A stretch of 64,000 nucleotides of DNA from a virus, in the IMG/VR virus record IMGVR_UViG_3300043571_000443, positions 10,187 to 74,186 of that record, one strand, 5' to 3'. A program made the position numbers and the translations under genes. Within the stretch, counting starts at the first letter, position 1, and every line of letters starts with the position of its first letter. Of this stretch, positions 3,568 through 63,428 are shown one piece after another. The notes below the pieces were generated by a model that was not told the DNA's origin, ran no database searches, and was given only the letters and a program-made list of their open reading frames with translations.

Positions 3568-3630
3568 AGTCCCCACCCTGGTGGGAGTGTTTCAATTTGC
3601 AGTTTGCTATCCCACTTTGGTGGGAGCAAA
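3568..3630 (+). repeat. Two-copy CCCAC-N4-GTGGG hairpin cluster between two terminators
   Basis: CCCCACCCTGGTGGGAG at 3571 and TCCCACTTTGGTGGGAG at 3610. Confidence 0.65.
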
Positions 3631-3680
3631 ACCCAAACGTAAGCAAATTGCGGTAGACTGGATTTGTTAGATGCACTTCA

Positions 3681-3703
3681 GCCCCGGCCACCCGGGGTTT
3701 TTT
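3681..3703 (+). terminator. Intrinsic terminator
   Basis: CCCCGG-CCAC-CCGGGG followed by TTTTTT. Confidence 0.7.
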
Positions 3704-3723
3704 GTTGTGGGCATCCTGGATCC

Positions 3724-4347
3724 ATGGCAACCAAGAAACCCACACCAAAGCTACGATCCAAGCACGCCCCCAAGCCAGCTCCTGGTGCTAGGCGGGGTAA
3801 CCGGCAGGTGGTAAAGACTTCCGGCCAGCCTGCTACGCCAGCCTGCAAGGAGCGGGCCTTTGAGCTGTACTGCGAGCTGGGGCCACAATGGGCCGAAATA
3901 TCTAGGCGACTGAAGGGCGAAGGCTTTGACCGCTGTGGCAATACGACGATCAGCGGCTGGGCCAAGGCAGGCGACTGGCACGCCAGGAAGCTAGCTATGA
4001 CTGAAGCGCCAGGCGAGGCGGCAAAGGTGCCCCACAAGACCAAGGCAGCACCGCCCCCACCGCCAGCGACAGACCTGGGCAGCTACCGCACCAAGAAAAC
4101 CAACCTGGAGCATGTCAGGACGGCCATTGAGCAGGTGGTGCAGTCCATCTGTGATGCACGGGCCACCAGCGACCTGCGGGCCATTGGTAGCCTAGCAACG
4201 GCGTTGGTAAAGCTGATTGAACTTGAGGGGAAATTAAGCCCCGCCACGGCAGCCGAACTAGCGGCTAGGGCCGTAGAGCTGGGTATGGATCCAGAACAAT
4301 TTGTGGCGGCATTGGCAGAGCAATGGCGGATCGCCAAAGCTGGGTAA
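3724..4347 (+). CDS. Putative terminase small subunit (HTH)
   Basis: RAFELY...AEISRRL...TTISGWAKAGDW HTH pattern plus helical C-terminus; preceded by the late-motif variant GGGCATCCTG at 3709. Confidence 0.5.
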   Translation: MATKKPTPKLRSKHAPKPAPGARRGNRQVVKTSGQPATPACKERAFELYCELGPQWAEISRRLKGEGFDRCGNTTISGWAKAGDWHARKLAMTEAPGEAAKVPHKTKAAPPPPPATDLGSYRTKKTNLEHVRTAIEQVVQSICDARATSDLRAIGSLATALVKLIELEGKLSPATAAELAARAVELGMDPEQFVAALAEQWRIAKAG

Positions 4348-4350
4348 GCG

Positions 4351-4440
4351 CTCCCACGGGGTGGGGTTGCTCAGGGCAAAGAATAACTCCCACGATGGTG
4401 GGGTGATCTAGCGACCGGAGCGACTCCCACCGAAGTGGGG
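4351..4440 (-). repeat. Three short-period (36-37 bp) hairpin units adjoining the CRISPR-like array
   Basis: CTCCCAC-N3-4-GTGGGG at 4351, 4387 and 4424. Confidence 0.7.
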
Positions 4441-4457
4441 CTGGGCTGCTGGGTTTG

Positions 4458-60505: not shown

Positions 60506-60534
60506 GCGGTACGACTCCGCTCCTTTTGCTAGCC

Positions 60535-60699
60535 ATGCACCATGACCACGCCGACGGCCTTCTCGCCATCTTAGCCACCGCCATTTTTGTGGTGGGGCTT
60601 TTCGCTGGCTTCAGCCTGGGTGCCGATCTGTGCCAGCAAAAAGCCAATGGCCCGCTGTTGTGGCGGCAATTGTCCACCTTCATCCTTGGAGAGCCATAA
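60535..60699 (+). CDS. Small membrane protein
   Basis: Hydrophobic helix GLLAILATAIFVVGLFAGF. Confidence 0.4.
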   Translation: MHHDHADGLLAILATAIFVVGLFAGFSLGADLCQQKANGPLLWRQLSTFILGEP

Positions 60700-61112
60700 T
60701 GGATCCACTTACAAAGCCTCGATGCCAGGATCTGGTATCGACTCCCGCCCCCCGGGACGCCAATTACCTACTGTGGGGCCCGCAAGAATACCCGCTGGAG
60801 GCTGGCCTTAGCCTGCGGGAAGCCTATTTTGAGTTAGACGCTGCGGGCGTCTGCGACATTCGTGGCCTTACCCAGCAGGGCCAGGCGATCCCCGTCGATC
60901 AGTCGCTGGCGACTACTGAGCCAGTACCCATGGCTGAGCCGGTTGCTGCGGTAGCTGAGCCCGCTAGCTTGCCCTGGTCGTTCCTGGCGGTGCTGGCTGC
61001 GGTTGCCGCTATGGCGGCTGGCAGCATGGCCCAGGCCCGCCGTCGCCGGGCTACCGATTCTACCGCCAAACCCGAGAACCCTTACGCTGGAGGGCTGAAT
61101 GATGAACATTGA
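60699..61112 (+). CDS. Membrane protein
   Basis: C-terminal TM helix; coupled. Confidence 0.5.
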   Translation: MDPLTKPRCQDLVSTPAPRDANYLLWGPQEYPLEAGLSLREAYFELDAAGVCDIRGLTQQGQAIPVDQSLATTEPVPMAEPVAAVAEPASLPWSFLAVLAAVAAMAAGSMAQARRRRATDSTAKPENPYAGGLNDEH

Positions 61113-61593
61113 AGAATTGATTTTGCCTATTGGTGGCTTGGCCCTGGTGGGCTTCACTTTGTTCTCGGGTGGCACTGAGCAGGGAGCTGCCATCCTTCAG
61201 GACGGCAAGGCCGTGAAGGAGCAGCGACGCGAAGCGGCCAAAGAACAGGTGCAGGCGCTGAGCACCCAGGACCACCTGAGCCAGATGGCTGAGGTGGCCG
61301 CTCAACGCTATGAAGCGGGCTGCACGTTTCACTATGTGTTGGCTGACTTCCAACGGCCAGAGACGCTGGCCACCGGGGCCAAGGACATCACCCCGCAGAC
61401 TCTTTCTGAGGGCATGATGCCGATCAACTGGCAGGGCCGCACCTACAGCAGGGGGCAAATATTGTGCGACACCTCTGGCAATACTGGCGTGATCGACGGC
61501 GATGGCAGAGTACAGGAGTATGCCTTCAACGGCAACATCGATATTAGCCAGTATAGCCAAGCATGGCTGGCCCGCCATGGAGGTGGCCGATGA
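61099..61593 (+). CDS. Membrane-anchored protein
   Basis: N-terminal TM helix plus coiled coil. Confidence 0.6.
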   Translation: MMNIEELILPIGGLALVGFTLFSGGTEQGAAILQDGKAVKEQRREAAKEQVQALSTQDHLSQMAEVAAQRYEAGCTFHYVLADFQRPETLATGAKDITPQTLSEGMMPINWQGRTYSRGQILCDTSGNTGVIDGDGRVQEYAFNGNIDISQYSQAWLARHGGGR

Positions 61594-62096
61594 AGTATCT
61601 GTTTTTGGTGTTGGCTGGCGCTATTTTCATGAATAGCCTCAAGGCCTATAACGCCGTTGGCCAGGACACCTTCGGCGGTCGCCTAGGCGGCTTGATTGCT
61701 GTCGTGGTGTTTCTGCTTGTCCAGGGTTTCGAGCTGAAGCCCATTTTCCTCACCAATGGCGGGGCCGGCATTTTCCCCACGCTGAATAAGTTGGTCGGCG
61801 GCAAGGTGCCTAGCTTTGCCTTAGCGGATCCAGAGGAGCTGCTAGATGCCACCCTCTGGGCCACCCTCGGCTATGCGGTGGACTTTATCGCAGGTTTACT
61901 AGTGTGGCCGCCAGTATCCAGTTATACGCTGGTGGCCATGGGTGGGGTGACATTTGCTGACATTCGCTGGGCTGCTGTTGGCAGTATTCTGGCCTGTGTC
62001 TTTGGGATGCAGCTTTGCATTCAACAGTACTTGAGCCGGGGCGGCAAGGTGCCCGGCATTTTAGGAGGTGGCAATGGAAAAGCCCGTGCCAAGTAG
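61590..62096 (+). CDS. Multi-pass membrane protein
   Basis: About four hydrophobic segments; GGAGG RBS. Confidence 0.65.
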   Translation: MKYLFLVLAGAIFMNSLKAYNAVGQDTFGGRLGGLIAVVVFLLVQGFELKPIFLTNGGAGIFPTLNKLVGGKVPSFALADPEELLDATLWATLGYAVDFIAGLLVWPPVSSYTLVAMGGVTFADIRWAAVGSILACVFGMQLCIQQYLSRGGKVPGILGGGNGKARAK

Positions 62097-63342
62097 CCCG
62101 CAAGCGGCACAATTCCTCAATGATGTGCTGCGCCAGCATTACGCCCAGCAAATTCCTAAGGCCCATGTGCCCCTAGGGGTAGGTGCATTCCTGGCACTGT
62201 CGGCATTCTCGGCGGTGCCTATTGTGCCATTTTTGGGAGCTGGCCTGGTAGCCTACGACGCTATTCGACGGCTGCGTAAGAACCGCCAGATTGTGGCTAG
62301 AAGCTACCAGGATCCATCGGTGCTGCTCAAAGGCTTGAAGTCTGAGCAGCACCAGACGCTGGAAGCATTTATGGCCATGGCTAGCGCCCCAAAAGCGCTG
62401 CCCCCTCTGGAGACGGAGGGGGAAAGCCCAGCAAAGGCCAAAAGTCAGCCCAGCCCACCACCGTCACCACCACCTGCCAGCCAGCCAGCGACGCCAGCGC
62501 CAGCACCGGAGCTAGTGGTGGAGGGGTGGAAGCCAGTACCGCTGGACACTAGCCTGCCCCAGTACCTAGCCAGCCAGATCCATATCCTGCTATCGGCGAC
62601 GACTGGATCCGGTAAGACCCACCTGCTGCAATGCCTCTGTGCCATCCTGGCTAACCGGGGCGATGAGCTGGTGATCTGTGATCCCAAGGGTAGCCGCTGG
62701 GGCCAACTGTCCCCAGTTGTTACCAGGATGAAGTCTGGCGTTGACTATGTGATGGTGATCCGGGATCTTGAAGCTGAGCTAGAGCGACGCTTCGAGCTGA
62801 ACCAAGCGGGCCGTCCGGTGGGCAACCACATCTGGGCGGTATTCGACGAATGGATGCTGCTAAAGGGCAAGTGTAGTGCGATGGAGGGCTCTGTTAAGTC
62901 GGCTATGGAGCAACGCCTGCTTAGCCTGATCGCCGCTGGCCGTGAGCTAAACATGCACCTGATCATGGTGAACCAGTCCCACCTGCTAGGCGACCTTAGC
63001 TTGTCTGGCGGCAGGAATACCTTCAGCAGTGGCCTGCGGGATAATTTGTGCACCCTGGGGCTAGGCTGCAAGACCACCCAGGACAACCTGGGTAAGCCGA
63101 TGGAGGGCAACAGCAAGAGCATTGACAACATGCTCCAGGATCCTGCCCTGATCCGCTCCCCCGCCGACCGGCAGTCTGCCCAGGGCTACCACAGCCAGAT
63201 CCGCAGCCAGCCCGGGGTAAACCGCACCTACTGCATCTACGCCAATAGCCTGAGGATTGGCGTCGTACCCGATCTGCCTATCCCGCCGATCCAGCGCTTG
63301 ACGCCGTTCTACCGGCCCAAGCCAGGCCAGGAGTCCGCCTAG
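62074..63342 (+). CDS. FtsK / coupling-protein-like P-loop ATPase with N-terminal TMs
   Basis: Walker A ATTGSGKT, ICDPKG, ELERR, Walker B VFDEW, AAGRELNMHL. Confidence 0.75.
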   Translation: MEKPVPSSPQAAQFLNDVLRQHYAQQIPKAHVPLGVGAFLALSAFSAVPIVPFLGAGLVAYDAIRRLRKNRQIVARSYQDPSVLLKGLKSEQHQTLEAFMAMASAPKALPPLETEGESPAKAKSQPSPPPSPPPASQPATPAPAPELVVEGWKPVPLDTSLPQYLASQIHILLSATTGSGKTHLLQCLCAILANRGDELVICDPKGSRWGQLSPVVTRMKSGVDYVMVIRDLEAELERRFELNQAGRPVGNHIWAVFDEWMLLKGKCSAMEGSVKSAMEQRLLSLIAAGRELNMHLIMVNQSHLLGDLSLSGGRNTFSSGLRDNLCTLGLGCKTTQDNLGKPMEGNSKSIDNMLQDPALIRSPADRQSAQGYHSQIRSQPGVNRTYCIYANSLRIGVVPDLPIPPIQRLTPFYRPKPGQESA

Positions 63343-63343
63343 T

Positions 63344-63428
63344 ATGTTCCCCGCTGCGGTGGGGGTGTGTCGTGCGGTGGGGGTAGATCGCTGGACTGCT
63401 GCAGGCGGATCCCACTGTGGTGGGAGTT
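63344..63428 (+). repeat. Hairpin cluster including a 29-nt type I-E-like repeat
   Basis: ATGTTCCCCGCTGCGGTGGGGGTGTGTCG at 63344, a half copy at 63372, and CCCACTGTGGTGGGAG at 63411. Confidence 0.7.

Follow-up and report, generated by a model that had tools for sequence, protein, structure and literature searches.

The 64,000-nucleotide (nt) stretch analyzed here, called the window, comprises bases 10187 to 74186 of the IMG/VR virus record IMGVR_UViG_3300043571_000443, a phage genome of 74,186 bp (G000) whose habitat is lake water and whose record ends in 127-bp direct terminal repeats. The window contains clusters of a short hairpin unit that recurs throughout this genome, and outside the window, 7 to 10 kb upstream, the phage carries a cas6e-cas7-cas5 module (genome positions 2210-4609) related to the type I-E systems of CRISPR (short palindromic repeats that are clustered and regularly interspaced).

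Each unit consists of a 5- to 6-bp CCCAC/GTGGG stem closing a loop of 3 to 5 nt, followed by an 8-nt tail of the form RGUnnnUC. A sequence-only reading of the window had reported six loci of such hairpins, and all six are present, with 20 exact CCCAC-N3-5-GTGGG motifs in the window against 0.40 expected and a maximum of 4 in 100 shuffles. The whole genome holds about 50 units distributed over 11 loci. Scanning for oriented units, that is, hairpin plus tail, recovered 51 in G000, 54 in its relative G001, and 63 in its relative G002, and none in reversed-sequence controls of the three genomes. Local folds gave the expected stem in 45 of the 51 units, with a mean of -10.7 kcal/mol. A global RNA fold of the cluster at 52245-52515 (z = -0.92) was uninformative because the arms of different units pair together, and local folds were used instead.

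No Rfam family reached its gathering score in the window or in the 10 kb upstream of it, and no CRISPR-DR family was matched at E values up to 10 in the cas region; a tRNA and tmRNA search was likewise negative. The possibility that the arrays are coding sequence was rejected, as their periods are not multiples of three and the units differ by insertions and deletions. Long open reading frames (ORFs) do run across several arrays, but stop codons are equally rare in all six frames because A makes up only 13 to 17% of these sequences.

Polarity of the units and evidence for action as RNA

The hairpin is asymmetric. On one strand it is always followed by the 8-nt tail R-G-T-n-n-n-T-C (for example, GGTGGATC and GGTTTCTC), and read on the opposite strand, the complement of the tail comes first. 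Tail positions 2, 3, 7, and 8 were G, T, T, and C in 167, 165, 142, and 147 of 168 units, respectively, counts that are partly built in, as the unit scan rejected any unit with more than two misses among the four. Orientation is uniform inside every cluster and mostly follows the local gene strand. Across 25 orthologous unit pairs from the three phages, divergence was 0.8% in the stems, 10% in the tail, and 42% in the loops, which bears out the earlier remark that loops vary while stems are kept.

The stem variants carry a strand signal of their own, since the orientation of each unit was assigned from the tail alone, independently of the stem. A single departure from CCCAC/GTGGG was seen in 27 stems, and 25 of these are A>G or C>T changes in the 5' arm, which the oriented RNA accommodates as a G·U pair but which would be an A·C mismatch on the other strand. 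The remaining variants include one transversion, and just one change is located in the 3' arm. No bias of this kind would be expected of an element acting as DNA. Together with the uniform orientation of clusters, its agreement with transcription, and the leader promoters described below, these substitutions show that the hairpin elements act as RNA, on the strand defined by the tail. This strand-specific tail, the agreement with gene strand, the 25 of 27 G·U-compatible changes, and the loops of 3 to 5 nt together support the proposal of the sequence-only reading that the hairpins are Cas6-type RNA sites.

The cas module, related phages, and distant Cas6e loci

The cas6e gene matched PF08798 (1.5e-31) and TIGR01907 (54.3 bits; cutoff, 45.2), the cas7/casC gene matched TIGR01869 (184.8 bits; cutoff, 178.05), and the short cas5e gene (148 amino acids [aa]) matched TIGR01868 (109.9 bits). 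Hairpin units are present between cas6e and cas7 and also directly after cas5. In a library-wide HMMER search, the phage Cas6e fell among compact Cas6e proteins of 170 to 195 aa sharing 36 to 49% identity. Eight Cas6e relatives all keep the histidine of an N-terminal sxHrxVMxGFP motif and a G-rich loop without change; this histidine, presumably the counterpart of E. coli His20, is a candidate catalytic residue.

The module is common to G000 and two near-full-length relatives, G001 (72.8 kb; TerL 98% identical to that of G000) and G002 (77.5 kb; TerL 69% identical), which carry units in the same syntenic clusters as G000, including the 36-nt repeats described below. Two complete genomes at ~49 to 50% TerL identity, G003 (42 kb) and G005 (58 kb), contain neither cas6e nor any unit.

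A metagenome contig of 5,571 bp, L103, has the same five-gene cassette layout as the phage: a 303-aa protein encoded on the opposite strand, a PD-(D/E)XK-like protein, cas6e, cas7, and a 148-aa cas5. Its Cas6e belongs to a cluster ~45% identical to the phage Cas6e. The cassette is flanked on both sides by outward-facing canonical type I-E arrays with a period of ~63 nt, whose repeat, GTCTTC-CCCAC-ATGC-GTGGG-GGTGAGTC, has the same hairpin and tail as the phage units. The short-unit clusters of the phage occupy the positions of these canonical arrays. The right-hand array begins ~5 nt after the cas5 stop codon, so that the stop-codon hairpins of the phage copy the array-to-operon attachment of this family. 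The L103 cassette has the look of a minimal type I-E derivative in its own right, lacking cas3, cas8e, and cas11. P0146 was not found in viral contigs. At L108, which encodes a more distant Cas6e, the adjoining repeats have CCCGC/GCGGG stems that differ from those of the phage and L103, indicating that stem and enzyme change together across the Cas6e family.

A conserved 354-aa ORF lies beside the phage cas module. We regard it as a real gene because the 303-aa protein in the same position of L103 is 49% identical to its product. The 354-aa protein had no match in Pfam, NCBIfam, PHROG, PDB, or Atlas, and its single-sequence fold reached a predicted local distance difference test score (pLDDT) of 33.

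Positions of the clusters relative to genes

Six G000 clusters begin 7 to 12 nt past the stop codon of a co-oriented ORF, namely after cas6e, after cas5, after the gene next to ssb, and after the genes at 52510-52707, 59992-60414, and 62068-63342 (window coordinates as in Table 1), and the same stop-to-hairpin distances recur in G001 and G002. The gene at 52510-52707 encodes 65 aa, and the cluster starts 7 nt past its stop (52510-52512); this cluster is kept in G001 and G002, both of which are without the adjoining accessory cassette. The gene at 62068-63342 is FtsK/HerA-like, and the first stem of the cluster behind it, CCCGC/GTGGG, is a G·U variant.

The sequence-only reading had placed five of the window loci immediately after stop codons (4347, 13221, 52510, 60414, and 63342). 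These stops are real and lie 2 to 8 nt from a hairpin, but a co-oriented upstream gene exists only at 52510, 60414, and 63342. At 4347 and 13221, the stop of a convergent plus-strand gene adjoins the far end of a minus-strand cluster, so that these hairpins do not lie in a 3' untranslated region (UTR): the last tail of array F overlaps the TAA stop (4345-4347) of the gene at 3724-4347, and the last tail of the cluster at 13216-13315 overlaps the TGA stop of an integrase-like gene at 12679-13221. The units at 3572-3632 sit between two plus-strand terminator-like hairpins. They are what is left here of a leader-driven array, of which G001 has 5 units and G002 has 11.

No U-tract terminator follows downstream of the clusters. 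After the cas5 cluster there is a promoter-like site, TTGACA-18-TATAGT, matching at 11 of 12 positions. A conserved block of ~45 nt (AGTGTGCC...TATTGACA) was seen after the last unit of two different clusters: it is located at L101 4866-4929 and, in both relatives (G001 and G002), behind the counterparts of the cluster at window position 63350. In G000, the block supplies the -35 box of the promoter-like site.

Table 1. Hairpin clusters and type IV-B-like genes in the window (positions are those of the window)
Feature	Position	Strand	Hairpin span (no. of hairpins)	Details
Two short units	3572..3632	+	3572-3624 (2)	Hairpins 3572-3585 and 3611-3624, 8-nt tail each
Array F	4345..4831	-	4353-4831 (9)	From the leader, ~five long units, then three short units
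Array F leader	4832..4905	-		Extended -10 box TGCTATAGT, the minus strand of 4873-4881
Three short units	13216..13315	-	13224-13315 (3)	Hairpins 13224-13237, 13263-13276, and 13302-13315
Seven units	52248..52502	-	52256-52502 (7)	Period of 37-43 nt; upstream of accessory cassette
Two units	60423..60508	+	60423-60500 (2)	8 nt past TAG stop of co-oriented gene 59992-60414
Two units and a decayed one (~63366-63387)	63350..63432	+	63350-63424 (2, plus degenerate remnant)	7 nt past TAG stop
csf1	43059-43802	-		TIGR03114, 6.6e-10 (below family cutoff)
cysH-like gene	43726-44469	-		In type IV-B-like operon
Cmx6-type cas6	44832-45590	-		PF09559, 160.8 bits; TIGR02807, 156.7 bits
csf3	45379-46107	-		7e-14 (below family cutoff)
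csf2	46100-47263	-		3.2e-9 (below family cutoff)

Arrays, leaders, and guides

Two loci of G000 are CRISPR arrays in the ordinary sense, array F in the window and array D outside it (genome positions 6066-6548). Their 36-nt repeat is made up of a 13-nt CTCGCAA-type extension, the hairpin, and GTTTCTC, and it alternates with spacers of ~27 to 37 nt at a period of 63 to 73 nt. Only these two arrays show a regular alternation of repeat and spacer; the dispersed clusters have a period of 36 to 43 nt. A conserved leader, often behind a terminator, stands ahead of 11 arrays in the three genomes, three of them in G000, and its -10 box, TGnTATAGT, is invariant and points into the array.

Spacer content turns over from one end. 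In array D, two trailer spacers are common to G000 and G001 and all leader-side spacers differ, and in a DNA run from another lake sample spacers of array F are replaced by others of the same length. Such a polarity of turnover is to be expected in arrays that acquire spacers.

The dispersed loci are runs of 1 to 7 minimal units. In these, the distance from the end of a tail to the next stem, which we call the guide, is 14 to 17, 21 to 22, or 26 to 27 nt, with almost none at 18 to 20 or 24 to 25 nt, and such discrete lengths suggest a packing constraint with a step of ~6 nt. About one-third of the short guides of G000 have a counterpart in G001 or G002. A near-identical 21-nt guide, CTGCTGAAGGGCGTTAACTGC in G000 (52295-52315) and with three differences in G001 (28575 region), is found in different clusters of the two genomes, indicating that units move between clusters.

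A number of guides in arrays resemble the 3' part of the gene that lies immediately upstream of the array itself, and the polarity is the same. Such matches extend over 18 of 19 nt (G000 and G001) and over 25 to 26 of 27 nt (G002 and G001) (genome coordinates, L101 457-507 versus 793-811 and G002 22384-22571 versus 22093-22119). They could reflect self-regulation, or they could be a trace of how units arise.

Transcripts, host, and abundance

Three metatranscriptome runs, consisting of assembled contigs only and thus unable to show RNA ends, cover the cas genes and arrays of relatives. Two RNA contigs of one study begin inside the hairpin at genome position 2875-2876, and another contig bridges that hairpin; the two starts carry no conclusion, because assembly breaks are expected at a repeat present in 50 copies.

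Among 185,579 species-representative genomes, no array of the hairpin with a GTTTCTC tail was found, and the only 4 matches were single and at chance level. The host may be a cyanobacterium, as weakly indicated by a SigF-like sigma factor and by nearest named DnaN proteins that are 38 to 40% identical. The phage-encoded SigF-like sigma factor, SSB, and DnaN sliding clamp are located at L005 7562-8152 and 8883-9311 and at L006 40-1206. The lineage is abundant in lake metagenomes, with more than 100 DnaN variants at 83 to 91% identity, and DNA runs of 20 further studies contain 40 to 73% of the sampled words. Material for experiments should therefore be obtainable.

The type IV-B-like cassette and other repeats in the window

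A type IV-B-like operon (43059..47263, minus strand; genes in Table 1) lies within a 9.3-kb cassette of low G+C content at ~42963-52252. No repeats belong to the cassette itself. The cassette is missing from G001, in which both flanks are syntenic, and neither csf2 nor the Cmx6-type cas6 was found in G001 or G002. Also encoded in the cassette are a ribbon-helix-helix (RHH) antitoxin-like protein (PF20605, at 47886-48197) and a HerA-like ATPase (at 49410-51047), and two further genes are unassigned. It is unusual for a type IV-B operon to have its own Cas6 yet no array.

The sequence-only reading had taken the hairpins for Cas6 sites at which the phage cuts its own mRNAs or releases small RNAs to load the Csf2 filament, and had proposed to check whether the hairpins and csf/cas6 genes occur together across related phages. 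They do not: G001 and G002, lacking csf2 and the Cmx6-type cas6, keep their 54 and 63 units, and the constant partner of the hairpins is cas6e-cas7-cas5. That relatives without these genes retain the clusters is the finding that the sequence-only reading had itself named as refuting the Csf2 assignment, which thereby fails. On this distribution, the type IV-B-like operon should be regarded as context and not as part of the hairpin system.

Other repeats occur in the window. At 56336-56446, inside or beside the ORF at 55859-56773, there are 4 to 5 tandem copies of TGTCA-N4-TGACA plus a C run at a period of 21 to 22 bp, and these look like iterons or operators. In-frame tandem repeats are present at 10130-11059 (126 nt, 6 copies, in a 1,348-aa ORF) and at 22781-23802 (144 to 147 nt, 7 copies, in a 364-aa ORF), and they are probably repeated domains of tail or fiber proteins.

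Interpretation and rival explanations

We think that the units are probably type I-E repeats that serve as Cas6e sites, punctuating the transcripts of the phage and releasing CRISPR RNAs (crRNAs), and we hold this explanation with somewhat better than even confidence. The units would be transcribed in sense, either from their own leader promoters or as the first bases of operon 3' UTRs, and the phage Cas6e would most likely cut each stem at its 3' base. After the cut, the mRNA upstream would end in a Cas6e-bound hairpin a few bases past its stop codon, and each released small RNA would begin with the 8-nt handle, continue with a guide, and close with the hairpin that follows. Such RNAs could load the nuclease-less Cas5-Cas7-Cas6e complex of the phage, with the arrays yielding normal crRNAs with spacers of ~33 to 37 nt and the dispersed clusters yielding very short guides. 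From the conserved handle and the discrete spacing classes, we infer that, beyond being cut, the RNAs would also be bound by Cas5 and Cas7. The short-guide particles may possibly act as decoys or regulators or may be by-products. By analogy with the Racr and Cracr systems discussed below, a role in counterdefense is plausible provided that a type I-E system exists in the host. A bolder version, in which the 3' UTRs are miniature CRISPR arrays where Cas6e replaces terminators, quantized particles (~2 to 4 Cas7 subunits) are coupled to phage transcription, and units turn over fast without cas1, is a tentative suggestion that we would not expect to hold in full.

Several observations weigh against this explanation. 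The cluster at 13216-13315 is antisense to both neighboring plus-strand genes, the sole exception to the sense rule, and has only a weak candidate promoter. The co-occurrence of cas6e and hairpins is confined to one clade and thus counts as a single evolutionary event. Neither cas1, cas3, cse1, nor cse2 was detected in a six-frame family search of the whole genome (TIGR01587, TIGR02547, and TIGR02548 for the cas3, cse1, and cse2 families; the cas1 search had a positive control in 7 of 14 genomes, and cas2 had no separate search), leaving spacer turnover without visible machinery. Short guides did not match the genome of the phage itself more than expected, their longest exact matches being about those of shuffled guides. 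No protospacers were found for four long spacers in IMG/VR when every sixth base was left free, and array D spacers had only chance-level matches in isolate phages (E = 0.5). One RNA contig spans the cas6e-cas7 hairpins uncut. To our knowledge, guides of 14 to 27 nt are also far shorter than any spacer length that supports Cascade targeting.

There are two main alternatives. The units might be RNA decoys or regulators directed against a host type I-E system, soaking up or reprogramming the host's Cas6e, Cas7, and Cas5. Viral solitary repeats and Cracr arrays are proven anti-CRISPR devices of this sort (PMC10651486; bioRxiv 10.1101/2024.10.29.618823), and the fast turnover of guides beside a fixed hairpin and tail fits decoys that are indifferent to guide sequence. 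A pure mimic, however, has no need of the cas6e, cas7, and cas5 genes that this phage encodes; no array with this hairpin and tail was seen in the species-representative genomes, and many units lie inside operon 3' UTRs and not behind promoters. As the whole explanation it is therefore rather unlikely, with a modest chance of being right, and it can coexist with the Cas6e-site explanation. The units might instead do nothing but punctuate mRNA, with Cas6e-bound hairpins forming and protecting 3' ends in place of terminators and the pieces between hairpins arising as by-products. The position of the first hairpin, which in all sense clusters of the three genomes is 7 to 12 nt past the stop, the lack of U-tract terminators after the clusters, the promoter-like site behind the cas5 cluster, and the poor conservation of guide sequences would all be accounted for. 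For that purpose one hairpin would suffice, but the clusters have 2 to 7; moreover, the inter-hairpin lengths fall into discrete classes, and the 8-nt tail, the future 5' handle, is no less conserved than the stem. In type I-E complexes, this 8-nt repeat tail becomes the 5' handle and is held by Cas5. We give punctuation alone only a small chance.

The remaining alternatives fare worse. That the hairpins are sites of the Cmx6-type Cas6, their products loading the Csf2 filament, is very improbable. The cassette has a Cas6 and no repeats, so G000 might borrow these RNAs, and type IV systems and type I-E systems are documented to borrow components from each other (PMC11656645); still, the relatives keep all their clusters without csf2 and this cas6, the cassette is a 9.3-kb indel, and hairpin and tail match type I-E repeats. 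DNA-level elements, whether like repetitive extragenic palindromic (REP) sequences or bacterial interspersed mosaic elements (BIMEs), operators of RHH or helix-turn-helix proteins, or attC-like tyrosine-recombinase sites, are hardly credible. The units are palindromic, intergenic, and near stop codons, some clusters border variable cassettes, and the phage has two tyrosine-recombinase genes. The REP-like and operator alternatives entertained by the sequence-only reading are nevertheless excluded by the one-sided tail, the strand bias of stem variants (25 to 1 in favor of G·U compatibility), and the variable loop, since a length that ranges from 3 to 5 nt would shift operator half-sites. BIMEs alternate in orientation, whereas orientation here is uniform in every cluster. 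Hairpins of 14 nt are also far shorter than attC sites, and the motif is in excess in no representative genome.

If Cas6e does cut at ~50 sites, this would be a natural viral use of a CRISPR endoribonuclease to punctuate a virus's own polycistronic messages, as synthetic biologists do with Csy4. The explanation, if true, would also mean that the phage makes Cascade-like particles whose guides are far below any length known to work. It has a bearing on the function of Cas3-less, Cas8- and Cas11-poor type I derivatives, on array turnover without Cas1-Cas2, and on viral repeat units where the virus brings its own Cas proteins.

Comparison with known systems

The canonical type I-E repeats of E. 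coli, T. thermophilus, and Klebsiella resemble the phage units in their 5- to 6-bp CCCCAC/GTGGGG stem, tetraloop, and 7- to 8-nt 3' tail beginning with GT. The Klebsiella repeat GTCTTCCCCACGCACGTGGGGGTGTTTC, for example, is written GTCTTC-CCCAC-GCAC-GTGGG-GGTGTTTC, and its end reads ...CCCCAC-GCAC-GTGGGG-GTGTTTC (PMC8847753). The phage is further like these systems in having cas6e-cas7-cas5 in the same genome, arrays D and F with a leader, and polarized spacer turnover. In contrast, most phage units stand in clusters of 1 to 7 with 14 to 27 nt from tail to stem instead of alternating with 32-nt spacers in arrays, short units do not conserve the repeat's 5' part, which is 13 nt long in arrays, the loops vary among repeats of a single phage array, and no cas1, cas3, cse1, or cse2 accompanies them.

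Solitary repeat units, or Racr (Camara-Wilpert et al. 2023; PMC10651486), are likewise CRISPR repeat mimics carried by phages outside canonical arrays. Racr are single promoter-driven units that act via host Cas proteins and are usually unlinked to cas genes, whereas this phage has ~50 units together with its own cas6e, cas7, and cas5, and most of its units ride on operon transcripts. Cracr/crlRNA arrays (bioRxiv 10.1101/2024.10.29.618823) are closer in being multiplexed tandem units with short pseudo-spacers; these are 21 to 24 nt long in the type I-E case, and the units are processed by Cas6e and form complexes with fewer Cas7-type backbone subunits (bioRxiv 10.1101/2024.10.29.618823). Cracr guides match host cas or toxin promoters, whereas no target was found for the phage guides, which are shorter still, and here the Cas proteins are phage encoded.

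CRISPR-Cas systems of mobile genetic elements and phages that lack adaptation or nuclease genes, along with virus mini-arrays (PMC11656645), share with this phage an interference-defective Cascade and arrays on a mobile element. Such phage systems are rare in phages under 200 kb according to that review (PMC11656645), whereas this phage has 74 kb and carries its repeats genome-wide rather than beside cas genes. Type IV-B loci (csf1-csf2-csf3-cysH) are represented by the operon in the window, but that operon is strain specific, and as the hairpins are also present where it is absent, they do not form its array.

Already known, then, are repeats of type I-E, mini-arrays in viruses, repeat units that stand alone, Cracr arrays, and CRISPR systems of phages that have no nuclease or adaptation genes (PMC11656645). 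Unusual in this phage are the combination of a 74-kb genome with ~50 units at 11 loci, mostly fused to ordinary operon stops, and the very short guides that fall into length classes.

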